From: Candidatus Nealsonbacteria bacterium CG07_land_8_20_14_0_80_39_13
GTDB taxonomy: Bacteria; Patescibacteriota; Minisyncoccia; Minisyncoccales; GCA-002779355
Direction of reading: 5' to 3'
DNA: 39,667 bases
NCBI GenBank assembly: GCA_002779355.1
Contig: PEWS01000027.1
Span: 1-39,667, forward strand
The notes under the pieces are model-generated. The model ran no database searches and was not told the origin of the DNA. It worked only from the letters and a program-made list of their open reading frames with translations. Positions 702-36,854 of the stretch are shown here, piece by piece. Both the position numbers and the translations under genes were made by a program. Positions within the stretch are counted from its first letter, which is position 1. Every line of letters begins with the position of its first letter.

Positions 702-1815
702 ATGGAAAATTTGAAAGAAAAACAAGAGAAACAGGAAGAGCTGCAAAAAAGAATCCTCGCGCTTGAGGACTGTCTTTGACGTTGAGAAAAAGAAAAACAT
801 GATAATTGAGATGGAAAAAGAAACCCTGTCTCCTAATTTTTGGGAGAGAAGGGAGGACGCAGTCAGGATCAGTCAGGAATTATCCCAGTTGAAAGAGGAT
901 GTGGCGGAAATGAATTGCCTGAAAGAGGATTTTGAGATAATAAGGGACTTAGGCGAAGAATTAGAGCTGGAAAAATTGGAAAAGAGAATAAAAGAAAAAG
1001 AAAAAATGCTTTTTCTTTCCGGAAAGTATGACAAGGGCAACGCCTTCCTGACTATTTATTCCGGGGCAGGCGGACAGGATGCGCAGGATTGGGTGGCTAT
1101 TCTGTTGAGAATGTATGAAAAATATTGTTCCCGCAAGAATTTTAAAGTAAAGATTTTGGATCAGGCCTTCGGAGAAGGAGGCGGGCCGGAAGGAAGAATT
1201 GGAGTAAAGCAAGTTTCTTTAGAAATTATCGGTCCATACGCCTACGGTCTTTTAAGAGGAGAAATGGGAGTTCATAGGTTGGTCAGGATTTCTCCTTTTT
1301 CTTCTAAATCTTTAAGGCACACCTCATTTACTTTAGTGGAGGTTTTGCCCGAAGTGAAGGAAGCGGGAGATATGATTGTTCCTCCGGATGATTTGAGAGT
1401 TGATCTTTATCGTTCTTCAGGGCCGGGCGGGCAGAATGTCAATAAAAGAGAGACAGCAGTCAGAATAACTCATTTGCCGACAGGAATTGTTGTCGCCTGC
1501 CAATCAGAAAGGTTGCAGGGTTCAAACAAACAGAAAGCGCTGGAAATTCTTTATTCAAAACTTTATGAATTGAATAAAGATAACAAAAAAAAGGAGATGT
1601 CTGAAATAAAGGGAGGAAGGATTTCAGCTGAATGGGGAAGCCAGATAAGATCTTATGTCGTTCATCCTTATAAAATGGTAAAAGATTTAAGGACGGATGT
1701 TGAGACTTCCGATGTGGATAAAATTTTAGACGGGGGACTTGATGATTTCATTGAAGCGGAACTTAAATTACCTGCCCGCAATGCTGAATATAGCGATGCA
1801 GGCGGGAAAAGCTAA
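702..1815 (+). CDS. prfB: Peptide chain release factor 2, made by +1 programmed frameshift (ORF0 702-776, then 778-1815)
   Basis: ORF0 reads MENLKEKQEKQEELQKRILALEDCL and ends at CTT TGA C (774-780), the classic RF2 shift site. The downstream frame carries the SPF and GGQ motifs (RISPFSS, SGPGGQNVNK). Confidence 0.93.
1771..1806 (+). repeat. GC-rich palindromic element, in-frame copy at the prfB C-terminus
   Basis: CCTGCCCGCAATGCT-GAATAT-AGCGATGCAGGCGGG. The arms pair, with wobbles and mismatches. It encodes PARNAEYSDAGG. Confidence 0.7.
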
Positions 1816-1817
1816 AA

Positions 1818-2513
1818 ATGATAACATTTGAATCAGTAACAAAAGTTTATTCTTCTAAAAAATGCAAGGAGCCGATGAAGGCTTTGGACAATGTTTCTTT
1901 TGAGATAAAACCTAAGGAATTTGTTTCCATCGTCGGCAGGTCGGGTTCAGGGAAGACAACTTTATTGAAAATTATTCTGGCCGAGGAGAAGCCGACAGAG
2001 GGGGCGGTTTTTTTTGAAGGTTGCAATATCCATAAGCTGAAAATGAAAGGCCTTCCTTTCTATAGGAGAAAGATAGGCGCTATTTTTCAGGATTACAAGC
2101 TCCTTTGCTCTAAAACGGTTTATGAAAATATCGCTTTCGTGATGCAGGTTACCGGAGCCGGCGACGTGGAAATAAAAAAAGACGTTCCTAAGGTTTTGGA
2201 AATAGTCGGCTTAGCGGAAAAGTCCAACAACTATCCGGCTGAACTTTCCGGAGGAGAGAAGCAAAGAGTGGCCATTGCCAGAGCCTTGATTCATCGTCCG
2301 GAGGTAATTCTGGCCGATGAGCCGACCGGCAATTTAGACCCTTACAATGTCTTGGAAATTATCAATCTTTTAGTTAAGATTCAGGAGATGGGTACGACCG
2401 TTATTTTAGCCTCTCATAATAAAGATGTAGTTAATTCCATCGGGAAAAGGGTTATTACTTTAGAAAAAGGAAAAATAATAAGAGACGAAGAAAACGGAAG
2501 ATTCATTCTATAA
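1818..2513 (+). CDS. ftsE: Cell division ABC ATPase FtsE
   Basis: Walker A GRSGSGKTT, ABC signature LSGGEKQR, Walker B ILADEPTGNLD. It is adjacent to an FtsX-like permease. Confidence 0.9.
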   Translation: MITFESVTKVYSSKKCKEPMKALDNVSFEIKPKEFVSIVGRSGSGKTTLLKIILAEEKPTEGAVFFEGCNIHKLKMKGLPFYRRKIGAIFQDYKLLCSKTVYENIAFVMQVTGAGDVEIKKDVPKVLEIVGLAEKSNNYPAELSGGEKQRVAIARALIHRPEVILADEPTGNLDPYNVLEIINLLVKIQEMGTTVILASHNKDVVNSIGKRVITLEKGKIIRDEENGRFIL

Positions 2514-20075: not shown

Positions 20076-22079
20076 ATGATGGTTAAAAAGGAAGATTCAT
20101 TTTATCCGGGCAAGGAGTTTCAAAAAAGGGCTTGGGTAAAAAATAAATCCATTTATAAGGAAGCGGAAAAAAGTCCGATTAAATTTTGGGAGAAATTAGC
20201 CAAAGAACTTTTTTGGTTTAAGAAATGGAAGAAGGCATTTACTCACGACCCGAAGAAATTAAAGTTTCAATGGTTTTCCGGCGGAAAAATTAACATCACC
20301 GCTGATATTTTTGAAAACAATTTTCTCGGCTGGGATTCGGCTGAAAGCGGAATAAAAAACAAGCTGGCTTTGATTTGGGAACCGGAATCAACGGATGAGA
20401 AAGAGAGAAAATTTACCTATCAGGAATTATTTTCAGAAGTTAATCGTTTCGCCAACGCTCTTAAGAAAAGCGGGGTAAAGAAAGGCGATAGGGTGGGAAT
20501 ATACTTGCCGATGATTCCGGAGGCGGTGATTTCTATGCTTGCTTGCGCCAGAATAGGCGCTGTTCATGCTGTTGTTTTTTCCGCTTTTTCCGCAGAATCC
20601 TTAAGGGTTCGGCTTCAAGATACGAAAGCAAAAGTTTTAATTACTGTTGACGGTTATCATAGGAGAGGGAAAGTGGTTGACCTGAAGAAAAATGCTGATG
20701 AGGGAATTAAAGAGACAAGCATAGAAAAAATAATTATTTTCAAAAGAGCGGGGAATCCCGTTGACTGGAAGGATGGCAGGGATTTTTGGGCAAGCGAATT
20801 AACTAAGAATGAGAGCGATTATTGTAAACCGGCTATAATGGACGCTGAGGATTTGATGTTTATTCTTTACACCAGTGGCAGTACCGGCAAGCCAAAGGGT
20901 TGCGAGCATGTTTGTGGCGGTTATGCTGTTCAGTCATATTGGACAGGCAAATGGATATTTGATTTACATGGACCTGCCCGCAATGCTTCCGCCACAACTT
21001 CGCAGATGTTGGCGGATGCAGGCGGGGATGATATTTTTTGGTGCACAGCTGATATCGGCTGGGTGACAGGCCACACCTACGCCGTGTATTCTCCTTTGCT
21101 TAACGGAGCAACCTCTGTTATTTTTGAAGGCGCTCCTGATTGGCCGGGACCGGATAGGTGGGCTCAAATTATTGAGAAATACGGAATTACAGTTTTTTAT
21201 ACTGCGCCTACAGCTATCAGAATGTTTAAAAAGATGGGAGCGGAAATTATTAAAAAATACGGTTTTAAGACATTGCGGGTAATCGGTTCAGTAGGGGAAC
21301 CCATAGATGATACGGCTTGGAATTGGTATTTTGAAGAAGTTGGGAGAGGCAACTGTCCTCTGGTTGATACTTGGTGGCAGACGGAAACAGGGGGAATTTT
21401 GATCAGCTCTCTGCCCGGAGTCGGCCCCTTCAAGCCGTCTTTTACCGGCCGACCTTTTCCCGGATTAAAATTTGATATTTTGGATGACAATGGAAAGCCT
21501 GTTAAAACTGGAAAAGAGGGGAATTTGGTTTTATTCCCGCCCTTTTCCCCTTCGCTGTTGAGGGGAATTTATAAGAATTTTAAAAAATATAAGGAAACTT
21601 ATTGGAGTCAGTATGGAGGTAAAATATATGTTACTTCAGATACTGCTCTTAAAGATAAAAATGGTTTGATCAGAATAGTCGGCAGAGCCGATGACGTGAT
21701 TAAAGTGGCCGGGCATAGGATTACTACCGGTGAAATGGAGGCTGTAATTAATCGCTGTCCAGAAATAGCCGAGTGCGCAGTGATAGGAGTTTTTGATGAA
21801 ATAAAAGGTCAGGTTCCTGTAGTTTTTGCTGATATTAAGGGTGTGGAGAGAGATGTTGAAAAAATTAAGGAAGATATTGTCGTGCAAATACGGAAAGAAA
21901 TAGGGCCAATAGCGCTACCTAAGCAGGTCTACTTGGTTGACGAATTGCCAAAAACCCGTTCAGGCAAAATTATGCGCAGGATTTTGAGAAAATTATTTAC
22001 CGGAGAAGAATTAGGCGATTTATCCACTCTCTCAAATCCGGAAGCAGTAGAAGAAATCAGAAACCAAATAATTAAATAA
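20076..22079 (+). CDS. acs: Acetyl-CoA synthetase (AMP-forming)
   Basis: YTSGSTGKPKG, WCTADIGWVTGH, DTWWQTETGG, PKTRSGKIMRRILRK. Confidence 0.95.
   Translation: MMVKKEDSFYPGKEFQKRAWVKNKSIYKEAEKSPIKFWEKLAKELFWFKKWKKAFTHDPKKLKFQWFSGGKINITADIFENNFLGWDSAESGIKNKLALIWEPESTDEKERKFTYQELFSEVNRFANALKKSGVKKGDRVGIYLPMIPEAVISMLACARIGAVHAVVFSAFSAESLRVRLQDTKAKVLITVDGYHRRGKVVDLKKNADEGIKETSIEKIIIFKRAGNPVDWKDGRDFWASELTKNESDYCKPAIMDAEDLMFILYTSGSTGKPKGCEHVCGGYAVQSYWTGKWIFDLHGPARNASATTSQMLADAGGDDIFWCTADIGWVTGHTYAVYSPLLNGATSVIFEGAPDWPGPDRWAQIIEKYGITVFYTAPTAIRMFKKMGAEIIKKYGFKTLRVIGSVGEPIDDTAWNWYFEEVGRGNCPLVDTWWQTETGGILISSLPGVGPFKPSFTGRPFPGLKFDILDDNGKPVKTGKEGNLVLFPPFSPSLLRGIYKNFKKYKETYWSQYGGKIYVTSDTALKDKNGLIRIVGRADDVIKVAGHRITTGEMEAVINRCPEIAECAVIGVFDEIKGQVPVVFADIKGVERDVEKIKEDIVVQIRKEIGPIALPKQVYLVDELPKTRSGKIMRRILRKLFTGEELGDLSTLSNPEAVEEIRNQIIK
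20973..21027 (+). repeat. GC-rich palindromic element, long variant, in frame in acs
   Basis: CCTGCCCGCAATGCT-TCCGCCA..TGGCGGA-TGCAGGCGGGG. It encodes PARNASATTSQMLADAGG. Confidence 0.8.
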
Positions 22080-30015: not shown

Positions 30016-31140
30016 TTATTCTTCCTGCTCTTCGGCTGATTCCATGGCTTCTATAATGGGGTCAAGTCTTCCTTCCATTATCTCTTCAATGCCGTGGAAA
30101 GATTTTTTAATTCGGTGGTCGGTTACTCTGTCTTGAGGAAAATTGTAGGTTCTGTTTTTCTCCGCTCTTTTGGCCCTTCCTATTTGTCCTTTTCTGTCCC
30201 CGCCTAATTTTTGAGCCTCTTCCTCCTCTCTTATTTCAAGGAGGCGAGCTGATAGAACGCTCAAGGCGTTTTCTTTATTTTGGAGCTGGTTTCTTTCGGT
30301 CTGGGATTCAACGACCAATCCTGTCGGGATATGGACTATTCTTACAGCCGTCTCTCTTTTATTGACGTTTTGCCCGCCCGGTCCTGACGAACGGCAATAT
30401 TCAATTTTTAATTCATCAGGTTTAATTTCCAATTGAGTATTTTTCGGTTTCGGAAGAATGGCCACTGAAACGGTGGAAGTGTGTATTCTTCCGCTTTTTT
30501 CCGTTTCGGGAATTCTCTGGACTCTATGGACCCCGGACTCGTTTTTCATTTTAGAGAAAATATCGCCGTTCCCGTCCGCATCGCTATGCGAAGCGTTGCG
30601 GGTGGATTCCAGCTGAAATACGATTTCTTTAAATCCGCCAGTTTCAGTAGGGCTGGAATTAAGGATTTTTTGCCTCCAACCTTGCTGTTCCGCGAACCTT
30701 GAATACATCTTGAATAAATCTCCGACGAATAAAGCTGCTTCGTCTCCCCCTGCGCCGGCCCTGATTTCAACGATTATGTCTTGCGGTTCAGAGCTTTCTT
30801 TCTGGCCTTTGATTAATTTTTTTAATTCTTTTTCCAAGACCTCCTTTCTTTCCCTGAATTGAGTAATCTCAATTTCAGCCAAGGAGGATAATTCGGGGCC
30901 TTCTTTCCCATTCAGGATCGCCCTGTTTTCTTCAATTCTGTCGTCAATTTCTTTTATTTCTTTTTCTTTCTCAATTATTTTTTCAAGATAGCTTTTCCTT
31001 TTAGATAGTTCTTCAAATTTTTTCCAGCCCGCATCGCTACGCGAAGCGTTGCTGGCGGGCCAATCAGAAATCAGCTCAGGGTTGCTGAGCTGATTTAAAA
31101 TTTCTTTATATTCCCGCTGAATATCGCTTAGGTTATCCAT
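30016..31140 (-). CDS. prfA: Peptide chain release factor 1
   Basis: P-E-T tripeptide (RIPETEKSGRIHTS), GGQ (SGPGGQNVNK), and DHR near the C-terminus. Confidence 0.93.
   Translation of the reverse strand: MDNLSDIQREYKEILNQLSNPELISDWPASNASRSDAGWKKFEELSKRKSYLEKIIEKEKEIKEIDDRIEENRAILNGKEGPELSSLAEIEITQFRERKEVLEKELKKLIKGQKESSEPQDIIVEIRAGAGGDEAALFVGDLFKMYSRFAEQQGWRQKILNSSPTETGGFKEIVFQLESTRNASHSDADGNGDIFSKMKNESGVHRVQRIPETEKSGRIHTSTVSVAILPKPKNTQLEIKPDELKIEYCRSSGPGGQNVNKRETAVRIVHIPTGLVVESQTERNQLQNKENALSVLSARLLEIREEEEAQKLGGDRKGQIGRAKRAEKNRTYNFPQDRVTDHRIKKSFHGIEEIMEGRLDPIIEAMESAEEQEE
30571..30605 (-). repeat. GC-rich palindromic element, in-frame copy inside prfA
   Basis: On the coding strand: CCACCCGCAACGCTTCGCATAGCGATGCGGACGGG. 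It encodes TRNASHSDADG. Confidence 0.8.
31024..31062 (-). repeat. GC-rich palindromic element, in-frame copy near the prfA N-terminus
   Basis: On the coding strand: TGGCCCGCCAGCAACGCTTCGCGTAGCGATGCGGGCTGG. It encodes WPASNASRSDAGW. Confidence 0.8.
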
Positions 31141-31537: not shown

Positions 31538-32302
31538 ATGACCGAAGATAAAAAGAAGAATAAAATAAAAACAGCAGACGAAGCAAAGGAAGGACTTGAC
31601 TTTGAAGAATTAGTTAAGGCCGGTTTGTATTTTGGCCACAAAACTTCAAGCACTCATCCTAAGATGAAGCAATACATTGAATCGTCAAGGAATAGAATTC
31701 ATATTATTGATTTGGCGAAAACAGCGGAAAAATTAAAAGAAGTTCTTGATTTTATCGGCGATCTGGTTTCTCAAGGGAAAGAAATTCTTTTTGTCGGCAC
31801 CAAGATTCAGGTAAAAGATAAAATAAAAGAGGTGGCTGAAGAATGCCATCTTCCTTACGTCAATCAAAGATGGCTCGGAGGAACATTCACTAATTTCGAA
31901 ACAATCAAAAAGAGATTGGAATATTTCAGGAGTTTGGAAATGCAGAAGGCTTCAGGCGAGCTCCAAAAATACGTAAAGAAAGAAAGACTTAAGATTGACA
32001 GAGAAATAGAGGGGCTGAGGAAGAAATTCGGAGGCATTAAAAATTTGGAAAAACTTCCGACAGCTGTATTCGTTACAGATATGAAAGAAAACATCCTGGT
32101 TGTAAAGGAGGCCAGAGAGAAGGGGATAATAGTGATTGCTATCGCTGACACTAATGTTAACCCGGCGTTGGCGGATCATTTCATTCCCGCTAACGACGAC
32201 GCTATTTCTTCGTTAAATTATATTCTGGACAGAGTGAAGAAAGCAATTTTAGAAGCCAAACCCCAGCCAAAGGCCAGTCAGCCTCTGGCTGACAAAAAAT
32301 AA
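31538..32302 (+). CDS. rpsB: Ribosomal protein S2
   Basis: GLYFGHKTS..HPKM, ILFVGTK, VFVTD, AIADTN. Confidence 0.95.
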   Translation: MTEDKKKNKIKTADEAKEGLDFEELVKAGLYFGHKTSSTHPKMKQYIESSRNRIHIIDLAKTAEKLKEVLDFIGDLVSQGKEILFVGTKIQVKDKIKEVAEECHLPYVNQRWLGGTFTNFETIKKRLEYFRSLEMQKASGELQKYVKKERLKIDREIEGLRKKFGGIKNLEKLPTAVFVTDMKENILVVKEAREKGIIVIAIADTNVNPALADHFIPANDDAISSLNYILDRVKKAILEAKPQPKASQPLADKK

Positions 32303-33470: not shown

Positions 33471-34962
<1,492 letters not shown>

Positions 34963-35148: not shown

Positions 35149-35742
35149 ATGATTTTTTATAAAATTTTTTCTTATATATACAAAAGAGCGGCTCGGAGCA
35201 TGTGCCTGGACTGCAAGGATTTTATAAAGAATGGGGCGAAAATTCTTGATTTAGGTTGCGGTTCGGGAATAGCCGGAGATTATTTTAAAAAATTTTTTAA
35301 GGCCGAGGTTTTTGGGGTGGATGTAAAAAATAATAGGGTGGTTGATCTTCCCTTTAAAAAAATAGACGGGAAAAATCTTCCCTTTGATGATAATTCGTTT
35401 GACGCAGTTCTGATATGCTATGTTCTTCACCACGCCGAAGACCCCATCGCCGTTTTAAAAGAAGCGAGGAGGGTGGGGAAGGAAAGGATTGTTATTTACG
35501 AAGATATGGCTGACGGATTTTTTTCAAAATTATTCTGCCGTTTCCATGGATTAAGCTTTGATATTTTCTTTCAGGGATTTGTCGGCAAAAAGCGGGAAAA
35601 TCCGGAATATTTTTTTAAGGGGGAGAAAGAATGGCAGGGGATTTTTAAGGGATTGGGGCTGAAAGTTGTTTTTGAGAAAAGGATTTCGTTGCCGATTTCC
35701 CCGGTCGCCAAAAGAATTTTTATTTTAGATATCGTAAAATAA
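35149..35742 (+). CDS. Class I SAM-dependent methyltransferase
   Basis: Motif I ILDLGCGSGIAG and the post-I acidic residue; FDAVLICYVLHH. Confidence 0.8.
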   Translation: MIFYKIFSYIYKRAARSMCLDCKDFIKNGAKILDLGCGSGIAGDYFKKFFKAEVFGVDVKNNRVVDLPFKKIDGKNLPFDDNSFDAVLICYVLHHAEDPIAVLKEARRVGKERIVIYEDMADGFFSKLFCRFHGLSFDIFFQGFVGKKRENPEYFFKGEKEWQGIFKGLGLKVVFEKRISLPISPVAKRIFILDIVK

Positions 35743-35767
35743 TATGCGTTTGAAAATATAATAATAT

Positions 35768-35831
35768 GCGTGTGTAGCTTCGGCCTCGTCCAGAGGACGA
35801 TCAGCCTTTGGCTGAGGTTAGAGCGCGTCAC
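35768..35831 (+). pseudogene. Decayed duplicate of the 5' half of tRNA-Ile (nt 1-32), with 37 nt replacing 6 nt of the D loop
   Basis: GCGTGTGTAGCT + 37 nt + GTTAGAGCGCGTCAC, compared with the intact GCGCGTGTAGCT-CAGTTG-GTTAGAGCGCGTCAC at 36091-36123. Confidence 0.7.
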
Positions 35832-35839
35832 CTTTGGAT

Positions 35840-36100
35840 ATGTTCTGTGTGTATTTTTTGAAAAGCATTAAAAATGGTAAGATTTACGTAGGATTTACTT
35901 CTAAAAATATTGAGGTAAGGGTTGAAGAACATAATAGCGGTTCAAACGTTTTTACGAAAAACAATAAGCCATGGGTTTTGGTATATTATGAGATATTTAG
36001 TTGTGAAAAATGCGCTAGAGCGAGAGAGAAGTTTTTTAAATCGGGTATGGGTAAAAGATTAAAAAAGATAATTGTAGATAATTTTAATATGCGCGTGTAG
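35840..36100 (+). CDS. Small GIY-YIG nuclease family protein
   Basis: VYFLKS..GKIYVGFTSKNIEVRVEEHNSG is the GIY-YIG motif. The stop codon TAG lies inside the tRNA-Ile gene. The track start 35834 is TTG. Confidence 0.8.
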   Translation: MFCVYFLKSIKNGKIYVGFTSKNIEVRVEEHNSGSNVFTKNNKPWVLVYYEIFSCEKCARAREKFFKSGMGKRLKKIIVDNFNMRV

Positions 36101-36164
36101 CTCAGTTGGTTAGAGCGCGTCACTGATAATGACGAGGTCCGTGGTTCGAGTCCACGCTCGCGCA
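36091..36164 (+). tRNA. tRNA-Ile (anticodon GAU)
   Basis: GCGCGTG-TA-GCTC-AGTTGGTTA-GAGC-G-CGTCA-CTGATAA-TGACG-AGGTC-CGTGG-TTCGAGT-CCACG-CTCGCGC-A. Confidence 0.9.
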
Positions 36165-36243
36165 CTCTTTCACCTCGCTCTCTTGCCGTTATTCGGCAGG
36201 GGGAACGGAGTTTTGTTTTAAGGCGGTTTTTTGTTTGAAATAC

Positions 36244-36422: not shown

Positions 36423-36854
36423 AGAAGTTCCTTCTTAGTCAGGAGGATTTCAATGATTTTTCTAGATTTGAAGATGCAGAGAGCTGCATTTTCAAGGACG
36501 AAAAATTCCCGTGCGCCTTCACGGGATAGGTGTTTAAGGGAGCACGACAATAATTGTCCTCTGCCCCTATATTTCTAAGTTCGGAATTACATTATTAAAA
36601 AATTACGAATTTAGAAATGCTCCGGTCCCGCTGAAAGCGGGACGGGGGTTTAAAGAAAGAAGTCGGAAGCGCTTTCGCGACGGGGATATCTCTTTCCAGT
36701 TCTTCGCAAGAAGAACAATCTCTGTTACGAAAGCACCCCCGGCTTTTTTCAGTCCAGAGGACTATTCAGCCCAGAGAGCTTTCAAGTTGTAAATGTGTCA
36801 ATGAGGAGGTAAAATAGAAAAATAAGAACAATATTTAGAATATTTTTGAACTCT

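Follow-up and report, generated by a model that had tools for sequence, protein, structure and literature searches.

The prfB locus and its 36-nt element

In the stretch of DNA analyzed here (39,667 nucleotides, called the window throughout), the gene encoding release factor RF2 is followed by ftsE, and the features at this locus are as follows:

702..1815, + strand: prfB (RF2), host gene of the insert (ORF0 702-776, ORF1 778-1815)
1771..1806, + strand: copy of a 36-nt palindromic element, in frame in prfB, with the sequence CCTGCCCGCAATGCTGAATATAGCGATGCAGGCGGG
1818..2513, + strand: ftsE (ABC ATPase), with its ATG 11 nt 3′ of the element

The +1 frameshift site of prfB (CTTTGAC) is at 774-780, and ORF calling also gives a 763..1815 frame. 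The translation of the insert is PARNAEYSDAGG (P-A-R-N-A-E-Y-S-D-A-G-G), followed by K-S and a stop codon (TAA, 1813-1815) located 6 nt 3′ of the element end. This in-frame sequence bears out the preliminary description, in which an element copy formed the C-terminal tail of RF2 and lay close to the start of ftsE. The 14-bp stem with 2 mismatches that had been paired by hand agrees with the computed fold, a 14-pair hairpin with 2 internal mismatches (-18.7 kcal/mol; z = -3.9), and equally good folds were obtained in 0 of 200 shuffles. The prfB copy has type-A arms and a variant loop, GAATAT. Its arms match the family consensus at 30/30 positions and all 4 differences are confined to the loop, a pattern of which random decay is a poor account (P ~3e-4).

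We compared the C-termini of 120 RF2 homologues, in which the PCRF and RF-1 domains are present. The tail was observed only in P0001, which is 99% identical, and the 119 remaining homologues, which lack it, stop 1-13 residues past a conserved F[IV]EAE[IV]K-type motif. This agrees with the earlier statement that RF2 usually stops soon after LDxFIEA, and no element-free orthologue has the tail. The nearest orthologues, P0002 and P0003 (84% identity), end in ...EIKL/KS-stop, which represents an empty site. At the DNA level, the alignment with the orthologues shows TTA and AAAAGC of prfB cleanly separated by 36 inserted bp, and the empty site ...GAAATTAAATTA/AAAAGCTAA was seen in L001 and L002. 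No target-site duplication was found at RF2 (empty TTA/AAAAGC versus TTA, 36 bp and AAAAGC when filled). Besides the window, three 99%-identical contigs (L004-L006), each from a separate sample, have the 36 bp, and the prfB-ftsE-ftsX-greA synteny also occurs in relatives without the element, with the same prfB-ftsE junction. In addition, the copies in prfA and acs were missing from the nearest orthologues (P0122 and P0242), and we counted 0 element copies in the contigs of the nearest relative (~31 kb) versus 4 in the window. Taken together, these sequence comparisons confirm 1771-1806 as an exact 36-bp in-frame insertion in prfB. It would have entered between the ...KL and KS-stop codons, with no target-site duplication, after the split from the nearest sequenced relatives.

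Copies, reading frame and spread of the element

Three other copies were observed in the window:

20973..21026, + strand: 54-nt variant in acs (acetyl-CoA synthetase), encoding PARNASATTSQMLADAGG
30571..30606, - strand: decayed element copy, prfA site 2 (TRNASHSDADGN; QLE/STRNASHSDADG/NGD), with 3 mismatches to the consensus
31024..31059, - strand: element copy, prfA site 1 (ISDW/PASNASRSDAGW/KKF), identical to subtype CCCGCCAGC...GGGCTGG

The acs variant keeps the family termini CCTGCCCGCAATGCT...GATGCAGGCGGG around a longer inner hairpin. All four window copies (one in prfB, two in prfA, one in acs) are intragenic and have one common frame relative to the host gene; the kinship of the prfA and acs copies, proposed on the basis of their frame and peptide, was thus confirmed for both. 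RF2, RF1 (twice interrupted) and acs are nevertheless all full length, with intact domains. The element, 36 nt long with 14-15 pairs, thus has 4 copies in 39.7 kb, the 54-nt variant included. A core-pattern scan of the window gave 6 strand-hits versus 0.21 expected, and a scan of 20 shuffled windows with a relaxed consensus gave no match.

To describe the family, an exact-pattern scan with 21 specified positions was run on species-representative genomes. Near-identical 36-mers were found at at least 120 loci, where about 1 would be expected by chance according to our estimate. Among the matches listed, the record labels are 63 Patescibacteria, 31 Verrucomicrobiota, 3 Kiritimatiellia, 1 Lentisphaerae, 7 Gammaproteobacteria, 4 Bdellovibrionales and 1 each of Margulisiibacteriota, Chloroflexota and Terriglobales, with 8 lacking a taxon. 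Positions left free in the pattern are still conserved in these matches, with the loop TCGCRT in ~97% of copies and CCYG/CNGG at the ends; it is exactly at positions 0 and 37 that conservation drops off. The termini CCYGCCNGC / GCNGGCRGG are common to variants with differing interiors. The same 36-mer lies in the middle of RF1, acs, tRNA synthetase and many other genes, and also in intergenic regions. Copies nested exactly at the loop center of other copies were seen in L034, L043, L044, L055, L104 and L172, and one Verrucomicrobia genome has the 36-mer within a classical 165-bp TIR MITE. A phage or plasmid vector was rejected: the element matched nothing among INPHARED phages and PLSDB plasmids and only 4 contigs in IMG/VR, none of which carries a GIY-YIG ORF. 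Rfam gave no gathering-level hit at any window copy and only chance-level matches at 1730-1850 (E >= 3), so that a known RNA family was discarded as the identity of the element. The literature searched for the sequence, the peptide and GIY-YIG or REP-type links contained no description of the 36-nt family.

Intragenic copies were defined as those inside ORFs of at least 150 aa, at the loci below 45% GC among the matches listed; 41 of 63 copies qualified. Of these 41, 31 are in frame S0 and read P-A-R-N-A-S-x-S-D-A-G-G (P ~1e-16 against an expectation of 1/6), while the sole stop-bearing frame (TAG) is used by none. The proposal that the shared frame reflects selection for a tolerated peptide is upheld by these counts: the four window copies and most intragenic copies would share one frame because selection removes landings in the others. 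The frame statistics also suggest that the prfB insert is translated. Its 12 codons, open in the prfB frame, would be read through by the ribosome, and RF2 would gain a hydrophilic loop capped by glycine and proline at a dispensable C-terminal end, a tail that appears harmless and is presumably of no use to the host, which tolerates it. Where genomes are gene-dense and low in GC, selection would purge copies that sit in other frames or at structurally sensitive positions.

Concerning the fold shared by the copies, covariation was observed at 3-30, 12-20 and 7-34 among the matches listed. The plain palindrome register showed none (500/500 shuffles were equal or better) and was therefore ruled out as the relevant structure. 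Covariation thus supports two slipped hairpin registers rather than a plain palindrome. The alternative pairings (1-5 with 28-32, or 5-9 with 32-36) would place either end of the element at the foot of the stem.

We then considered the insertion sites. The window and L212 have the identical 36-mer at the same codon boundary of RF1 (site 1), in RF1 proteins that are 64% identical. At RF1 site 2, perfect consensus copies are present in L213 and L214, and other orthologues are empty. The flanks of 123 copies among the matches listed show no conservation beyond a slight preference for purines, and no consistent target motif was found in them. In 8 of 122 of these copies, three flanking bases equal the element 3′ end (~2 expected), and junction identity of 3-6 nt between the 5′ flank and that end is exemplified by TGG (RF1 site 1, L079) and GGCTGG (L098). 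Such identity is not general and no duplication exists at RF2; target-site duplication and a fixed motif were both rejected. Reconstructed empty sites showed no preference for predicted hairpin loops (0.24 versus a background of 0.20), so that hairpin-loop targeting is unsupported as a general rule and true only of nested copies and of loops in tRNA fragments. Mobility of the element is inferred from presence and absence at orthologous sites and from the identity of the copies. Overall, the best reading of the element is a discrete, widespread, selfish and translated mini-element of REP/RPE-like type, and it is likely that at prfB a palindromic mobile element of only 36 nt was inserted and is tolerated in translation.

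The GIY-YIG association and alternative explanations

A different kind of feature with a GC-rich hairpin was found towards the other end of the window:

35768..35831, + strand: duplicated 5′ part of tRNA-Ile (acceptor and D-arm), 5′ of the GIY-YIG ORF
35840..36100, + strand: small GIY-YIG nuclease ORF, 86 aa, UPF0213/SLX1-like (PF01541)

The match to PF01541 has an E-value of 3e-16 for the window ORF and 3.6e-15 for that of L019, and UPF0213 proteins and SLX1, a structure-specific nuclease, are the nearest relatives of the family, structure matches included. The D-loop of the duplicated tRNA-Ile part is interrupted by a GC-rich hairpin (35782-35817), which is other than the 36-nt family, and an intact tRNA-Ile follows the ORF at 36091-36165. 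A nuclease serving the 36-nt family, should one exist, is absent from the window. GIY-YIG ORFs of this kind typically lie within partial duplications of tRNA (or tmRNA), and 13 of 15 tRNA-adjacent loci have the same architecture, with the hairpin at the same D-loop position. Near small GIY-YIG ORFs of the UPF0213/SLX1-like type, at distances up to 120 nt, hairpins with the family termini are ~58-fold enriched. Across 80 metagenomic GIY-YIG loci, 22 of 25 such hairpins are within this distance of the ORF, in 20 loci, and the other 146.7 kb contain 3 (P ~2e-18). In 5/5 cases, the distance between a family-1 copy and the ORF is 15-45 nt, and GTDB loci added four further adjacent cases. A hairpin with the family termini occurs, however, in only 25% of GIY-YIG loci.

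When the ORFs around the matches listed were clustered, no transposase-like family recurred; the small families that did were GIY-YIG and 23S_rRNA_IVP. The 23S_rRNA_IVP four-helix-bundle genes were discarded as mobilizers, being present in 6 loci among these matches and never adjoining the element, as were the remaining neighbor clusters, which are housekeeping genes. An enzyme that acts in trans and recognizes the folded ends of the element may move it; the best candidates would be the ~80-90-aa UPF0213/SLX1-like GIY-YIG nucleases whose genes have a hairpin alongside. On this positional evidence, a GIY-YIG mobilizer of the 36-nt element is plausible but unproven. GIY-YIG nucleases cut DNA, and we know of no joining activity among them. 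Tentatively, and with rather less than even confidence, the 36-nt hairpin can be seen as the non-autonomous partner of a new mobile class driven by minimal GIY-YIG nucleases. A nuclease cassette would home beside tRNA or tmRNA genes and leave a pseudo-tRNA whose D-loop or variable loop contains the hairpin. Both slipped conformations would be recognized by this same nuclease, which would spread solo copies across phyla, and these copies would also enter essential genes at preferred sites.

Alternatively, no dedicated enzyme would be involved: host replication or repair, by template switching onto a hairpin or circle donor or by gene conversion, would have produced the copies, and the GIY-YIG adjacency would be a by-product. 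This adjacency could reflect hairpins accumulating in the neutral pseudo-tRNA fragments made by the cassettes. The junction identity at some sites, the lack of target duplication at RF2 and the 75% of GIY-YIG loci without the hairpin all fit such an origin. However, microhomology is missing at most junctions, and the D-loop position in the tRNA-adjacent cassettes is too regular for passive accumulation. Moreover, the sharp invariant ends and conserved interior recur across phyla, in over 100 genomes, as if a specific sequence or structure were being recognized, and we regard an origin by replication or repair as rather unlikely.

A second alternative places selection on the hairpin itself, as a cis-regulatory RNA (an attenuator, a terminator, or a signal for mRNA stability or coupling) at the prfB-ftsE junction, with an incidental peptide. 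The hairpin is stable and close to both the prfB stop and the ftsE ATG, and REP elements of other bacteria can stabilize upstream mRNA (PMC3733652). Nevertheless, the suggestion of a terminator or attenuator between the two genes was not supported. No terminator-like site was found on either strand of 1500-2100, and the hairpin is followed by AAAAGCTAAAAATG, with no T-run and hence no U-tract; this identity was rejected. The nearest relatives keep the same junction without the element, the tail is confined to a single near-identical homologue, and the 36-mer occurs in unrelated mid-gene and intergenic contexts; its position is therefore not specific to the prfB-ftsE junction. We consider a selected regulatory hairpin improbable, and ftsE is probably affected, if at all, only by a stronger translational dependence on ribosomes arriving from prfB.

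It is highly improbable that the release factors of this lineage were selected for the 12 residues as a functional C-terminal extension or interaction motif, conserved as a peptide. The single frame in RF2, RF1 (twice) and acs, and the occupation of RF1 sites 1 and 2 in several orthologues, would be expected of such a motif, but conservation is at the DNA level, with identical 36-mers across phyla and almost no synonymous variation. Copies are also intergenic, in other frames and in the opposite orientation; the nearest relatives lack all four inserts, and the host proteins are functionally unrelated.

More doubtful still is an insert present in DNA and left untranslated, whether the ribosome skips it or the mRNA has lost it. 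Lang and colleagues reportedly described in 2014 how the mobile GC clusters of AT-rich yeast mitochondria, the closest conceptual parallel, gave rise to bypassed "byp" elements, and the hairpin is strong. Bypassing would nonetheless make needless both a length divisible by three and the strong preference for one open frame with avoidance of the stop frame, which are expected of translation. Finally, there is a negligible probability that the insert is foreign to the real prfB and stems from a chimeric join or from an artefact of assembly or sequencing. Sequencing of short GC-rich palindromes is difficult in AT-rich genomes and the data are all metagenomic, but the insert is exactly 36 bp, in frame and repeated in the contigs of three separate samples. 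The family also appears in assemblies made by many laboratories with many methods, among them long contigs and a single-cell genome (L105).

Significance and comparison with known systems

Genes containing small palindromic repeats are known in Rickettsia and for some REP families, and such repeats are usually lineage-specific. Here, one 36-nt sequence is shared, near base-for-base, by Patescibacteria, Verrucomicrobiota and other phyla, strikes the same codon boundaries of essential translation factors repeatedly, and shows a close positional link to a very common mini GIY-YIG family (UPF0213). Such inserts need to be recognized in annotation and in phylogenetic marker alignments (RF1, RF2, tRNA synthetases, ribosomal proteins). 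If the GIY-YIG link were causal, it would give a function to UPF0213-type proteins, add a new enzyme class to hairpin mobilization and account for many of the odd short inserts that inflate the proteins of ultra-small bacteria.

The mobile GC clusters of yeast mitochondria include in-frame insertions in coding genes. They resemble the 36-nt element as short GC-rich palindromes with in-frame coding insertions in an AT-rich, gene-dense genome, but they are organellar, differ in sequence and have no GIY-YIG/tRNA cassette described. The RPEs, ~100-150 bp long and confined to Rickettsia, are likewise palindromic, in frame in essential genes of a reduced genome and read through at tolerated surface positions. 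Compared by description, the 36-nt element (54 nt in one variant) differs in its size and in its presence in several phyla.

Typical MITEs measure 70-300 bp. The element shares with them a non-autonomous nature and conserved inverted termini (CCYGCCNGC / GCNGGCRGG) around an interior that varies among variants, but it is far shorter, and at RF2, where the insertion site is resolved, the target is not duplicated; a parent insertion sequence carrying a DDE transposase was not found for it. The absence of target duplication and the hairpin-defined ends recall IS200/IS605. In IS608, a guide sequence pairs with the cleavage site, and by analogy the covariation at 3-30 and 7-34 would relate end segments of 4-5 nt to internal ones. 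Unlike IS200/IS605, the whole 36-nt element is one hairpin, there is no fixed tetranucleotide target and no Y1 transposase cluster nearby, and the 5′ flanks are heterogeneous among the matches listed.

The associated ORF can be compared with SegB of phage T4, a free-standing GIY-YIG homing endonuclease beside tRNA genes (PMC2330249). It has the GIY-YIG catalytic domain and adjoins tRNA or tmRNA genes with a duplicated fragment, a pattern expected of a homing-type cassette. Unlike SegB and I-TevI, it is a bare catalytic domain of ~80-90 aa with no DNA-binding domain. The literature searched described no constant partner hairpin for GIY-YIG homing endonucleases or for UPF0213/SLX1 nucleases.

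To our knowledge, the REP-RAYT pair is the only one in which an enzyme mobilizing such repeats is known. REP/REPIN sequences are non-coding, GC-rich imperfect palindromes of 20-40 nt that occur in many copies, occasionally inside genes, and whose mobilization in trans is attributed to a single-copy gene of nuclease type, itself flanked by the hairpins (PMC3733652). The 36-nt element is similarly short, GC-rich, imperfectly palindromic, non-coding by nature, multicopy and putatively mobilized in trans. In contrast, it has no GTAG or CGTC tag at either end in 123 copies among the matches listed, and no RAYT-like ORF cluster was seen at the loci of these matches. REP/REPIN are mainly extragenic, whereas the copies in Patescibacteria are mostly intragenic, and REPINs are lineage-specific and vertically inherited, whereas the element is near-identical across phyla. 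The adjacent gene also differs, being a GIY-YIG nuclease where RAYT is a Y1 HUH transposase. If the tentative reading of a nuclease-driven class were true, the hairpin and its nuclease would form a GIY-YIG counterpart of REP-RAYT that is horizontally mobile.

Palindromic element copies in prfB, prfA and acs

The preliminary description had read the C-terminal tail of RF2, the prfB product, as a copy of a 36-nt palindromic element, and its coordinates, frame and hairpin were confirmed in every detail. The window has a G+C content of 39% and encodes a bacterial 16S rRNA as well as three tRNAs; the proteins most similar to its own come from Parcubacteria/Patescibacteria metagenome bins. The following features concern the element:

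702 to TAA at 1813-1815, plus strand: prfB, read in the +1 frame after the frameshift site
774-780, plus strand: +1 frameshift site CTT TGA C, of the classical prfB type
1771-1806 exactly, plus strand: element copy in prfB, 36 bases (CCTGCCCGCAATGCTGAATATAGCGATGCAGGCGGG)
From 1818, plus strand: ftsE, downstream of prfB
20973-21026, plus strand: 54-nt variant with the termini of the 36-mer, in the acetyl-CoA synthetase gene (acs)
30571-30606, minus strand: element copy in prfA
31024-31059, minus strand: element copy in prfA

A GAGGA Shine-Dalgarno-like motif lies upstream of the frameshift site at 774-780, ORF0 running from the ATG at 702. In the host frame, the prfB copy reads PARNAEYSDAGG and is followed by the final K-S-stop, which places the insert two residues before the C-terminus of RF2. 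As a single strand it is predicted to fold into a 14-pair hairpin (-18.7 kcal/mol, z = -3.9). Compared with the first main form of the family, the arms are intact (30/30) and all four differences fall within the loop, a pattern unlikely to result from random decay (P about 3e-4). The element had no match in Rfam. We rejected a terminator identity for the hairpin, since the search for terminator-like sites found no intrinsic terminator at the prfB element. The four window copies (prfB, prfA twice, acs) share an identical frame relative to their host genes; no additional copy was found in the window at up to 10 mismatches, and scanning 20 shuffled windows gave zero copies. In RF1, the prfA product, one insert lies in a turn that precedes the conserved GVHRVQRIP segment, the other in the N-terminal helical domain.

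Among 120 RF2 homologues, the tail was present only in P0001 (99% identical), which represents 13 sequences whose contigs stem from three samples. The RF2 proteins ranking next in similarity, P0002 ('Candidatus Parcubacteria bacterium A4') and P0003, both at 84% identity, end in FIEAEIKLKS-stop, whereas the window protein ends in FIEAELKL-PARNAEYSDAGG-KS-stop. At the DNA level, the empty site of the relatives reads GAAATTAAATTA/AAAAGCTAA and the filled site of the window holds exactly 36 bp between TTA and AAAAGC; the DNA alignment with these relatives revealed no duplicated target bases. Both prfA inserts are absent from the nearest RF1 orthologue (P0122, 78%, BLASTP), and the nearest acs orthologue (P0242, 82%) reads FDLHK/DDILW where the window protein carries an 18-residue insert. 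No element copy was detected in about 31 kb of a relative's contigs. The reading of the tail as an element copy thus survived the comparison, as orthologues sharing it were not found and the nearest ones end without the insert. P0242 itself carries two short inserts elsewhere in the protein (PSESSGQ, and RVSAQGGPAFGW plus 3 aa), and their sequences resemble what other GC-rich hairpin elements would encode. Overall, we read the RF2 tail as a repeated palindromic element of which a copy was inserted recently, is probably translated and stays in a frame that the host tolerates. It is very probably useless to the host, and we consider an account by selfish in-frame insertion likely.

Distribution, reading frame and folding of the family

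We scanned GTDB (one genome per species, 2 x 596 Gb) with the pattern CCNGCAAYGCTNNNNNNAGCGATGCRGG, which has 21 specified positions and for which we estimate about one chance match, and obtained at least 120 loci. Among the matches listed, record titles assign 63 to Patescibacteria (many classes), 31 to Verrucomicrobiota, 3 to Kiritimatiellia and 1 to Lentisphaerae; 7 are labelled Gammaproteobacteria, 4 Bdellovibrionales, Margulisiibacteriota, Chloroflexota and Terriglobales have 1 each, and 8 lack a taxon name. The listed loci come from many source laboratories and include one single-cell genome. In the 123 copies among these matches, positions left free by the pattern are still conserved (loop TCGCRT in about 97%), the ends are CCYG and CNGG, and conservation drops sharply at positions 0 and 37. 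Two main forms, CCTGCCCGCAATGCTTCGCATAGCGATGCAGGCGGG and CCCGCCCGCAACGCTTCGCGTAGCGATGCGGGCGGG, account for 33 and 15 identical copies among the matches listed. The element had no match in cultured-phage and plasmid collections and is rare in IMG/VR (4 contigs).

Some copies are arranged in larger repeats. In Verrucomicrobia bacterium KR13_Ju.mb.40 (L022, L035, L069), the 36-mer forms part of a larger repeat, about 165 bp long and bounded by 20-nt terminal inverted repeats (TGAGTCAGTTTCAAAAGTCC...); the larger unit is a classical MITE with the hairpin as its passenger. Inverted, REPIN-like copy doublets with matching flanks occur about 270-700 nt apart in L114 (3990-4360) and L025 (5164-5894), and direct-repeat copies with 120 nt spacing in L049 (3653-3808). 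Small 23S_rRNA_IVP (four-helix-bundle) genes are present in 6 of the 120 listed loci (L012, L026, L030, L034, L063, L072), not next to the element.

Five of the six frames of the 36-mer are open. In loci under 45% G+C, 41 of the listed copies fall within ORFs of 150 aa or more; of these, 31 are read as P-A-R-N-A-S-x-S-D-A-G-G (P about 1e-16), the remaining 10 are spread over three other frames, and none uses the TAG-containing frame. The favoured peptide is hydrophilic with Pro and Gly-Gly caps; read directly from the sequence, the peptides of alternative frames, LPAMLRIAMQA and PACIAMRSIAGR among them, are hydrophobic. Given this frame bias, the character of the peptides and the insert positions, the simplest reading would be that the element is read through, with purifying selection against disruptive frames and positions. 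The earlier proposal that the shared frame reflects selection for a tolerated peptide is supported by these counts.

The plain palindrome register showed no covariation (500/500 shuffles as good or better). A first slipped register (1-5/28-32, 7-9/23-25, 11-14/18-21) gave 35 double-change cells, reached by 0/500 shuffles. Pair 3-30 is U-A in 23, C-G in 18 and U-G in 7 copies, and pair 12-20 is C-G in 25 and U-A in 17. A second slipped register with covariation combines 5-9/32-36 with 12-15/22-25, pair 7-34 being C-G, A-U or U-A. With so few subtypes, the covariation as a whole amounts to about four independent double changes. The stem foot holds the 5' end in one slipped register, leaving CNGG free, and the reverse in the other, leaving CCYG free. 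By analogy with IS608, where guide and cleavage site pair, the slipped registers might define the ends by structure.

Association with GIY-YIG nuclease cassettes

GIY-YIG (PF01541) was the most recurrent non-housekeeping family, in 8 of the 120 listed loci, as a small ORF closest to UPF0213 proteins and the structure-specific nuclease SLX1. The element lies in the duplicated 3' part of tRNA-Val directly after this ORF (L019, L024), in the D-loop of a duplicated tRNA-Gln 5' part directly before it (L122), or after it (L073). In L133 (1501-2164), smpB and the tmRNA gene flank the cassette, with the 36-mer directly next to the predicted 5' end of the tmRNA; L073 (7240-7700) likewise has a GIY-YIG ORF between smpB and tmRNA and an abutting 36-mer.

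In a reverse test, we fetched 80 metagenomic loci (184.5 kb) of relatives of the window's own GIY-YIG ORF. All five copies of the 36-nt family were found 15-45 nt from the ORF. Hairpins with termini CCYGCYNGC...GCNRGCRGG numbered 25, of which 22, from 20 loci, were at most 120 nt away from the ORF and only 3 in the other 146.7 kb, an enrichment of about 58-fold (P about 2e-18). Fifteen of the ORFs lie at most 60 nt from a same-strand tRNA, and for 13 of these the upstream 160 nt contain a tRNA 5' fragment whose D-loop holds such a hairpin. The positional association is solid. That the nucleases mobilise the element is an idea we hold only tentatively: a hairpin with these termini occurs in only a quarter of the GIY-YIG loci, the hairpin in the window's own cassette is of another family, and DNA joining is not known for GIY-YIG enzymes. 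Alternatively, neutral pseudo-tRNA fragments might simply be places where hairpins build up. Unrelated GC-rich hairpins flank other GIY-YIG ORFs (TCCCGCCTGCGCGGGAATGAC in L119, CGTCATTGCGAGG... in L099), which points to different hairpin partners in different nuclease lineages.

The cassette of the window has the same architecture as the element-bearing ones, with a hairpin of another family:

35768-35831: pseudo-tRNA-Ile 5' fragment, interrupted by a hairpin at 35782-35817
35840-36100: GIY-YIG ORF (PF01541)
36091-36165: intact tRNA-Ile

The last codons of the ORF overlap the start of the intact tRNA-Ile. The duplication covers tRNA-Ile positions 1 to about 25 plus the preceding 6-7 nt, and the repeat TAATATGCG(T/C)GTGTAGCT is found twice, near 35763 and near 36085, while TAATATGCGT is present once more at 35740. 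The second hairpin family is represented by TCAGCCTCTGGCTGA at 32263-32292, in the rpsB C-terminal tail (...PKASQPLADKK-stop), and by TCAGCCTTTGGCTGA within the 35782-35817 hairpin upstream of the ORF. Its pattern gave 2 matches in the window vs 0.07 expected, and this family may belong to the window's own cassette. Within the window, no 23S gene follows the 16S rRNA gene (33471-34961). Downstream of it lie a methyltransferase ORF (35149-35742), then the cassette and tRNA-Ile, and then about 650 nt free of long ORFs, in which a strong hairpin is found at 36617-36651 (TCCGGTCCCGCTGAAAGCGGGACGGGGG).

Target sites and comparison with known systems

The element copy at RF1 site 1, one of the two occupied prfA codon boundaries of the window, is identical to that of L212 (36/36), at the same boundary after TGG. 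The L212 RF1 is only 64% identical to that of the window, and closer orthologues are empty at this site, which is also occupied in P0124, P0189, P0193 and P0237. At RF1 site 2, L213 and L214 carry perfect consensus copies, those of L213 being a tandem pair. As the copies are young and the lineages that share a boundary are old, the hits must have been repeated and independent. Nested copies lie exactly at the loop centre of other copies in L034, L043, L044, L055, L104 and L172. No general target motif was detected in the copy flanks, nor any general preference for predicted hairpin loops as targets; three flank bases equal the element 3' end in 8 of 122 copies vs about 2 expected. The rpmE-prfA neighbourhood occurs in 5 of the 120 listed loci (L012, L051, L053, L091, L117) and in the window; L053 has a GIY-YIG ORF between the two genes and L091 a third RF1 insertion site (ILGK/PARNASHSDAGG/DKEA). 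Copies are also present in several genes for class I tRNA synthetases (L041, L048, L084).

In-frame palindromic inserts are already established (PMC3733652). We found no description of this sequence, its peptide or a GIY-YIG link to REP or palindromes in the literature, of which our coverage was incomplete, so that an earlier description is possible. The element is a selfish palindrome of the REP/RPE/MITE-like kind. It is not a REP, as it lacks a GTAG or CGTC tag, its copies are mostly intragenic and no RAYT was found among the ORFs of the 120 listed loci. Its 36-nt length and multi-phylum distribution separate it from RPE, the lack of target duplication at the prfB site, with no parent IS found, from classical MITEs, and the lack of a fixed 5' target, with no Y1 transposase cluster among the ORFs of the 120 listed loci, from IS200/IS605-like elements. 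It stands above a routine repeat by a sequence near-invariant across phyla, the repeated hits at the same release-factor codon boundaries, two slipped end-pairing conformations with covariation, and its strong association in position with the mini GIY-YIG nuclease cassettes of tRNA/tmRNA genes.
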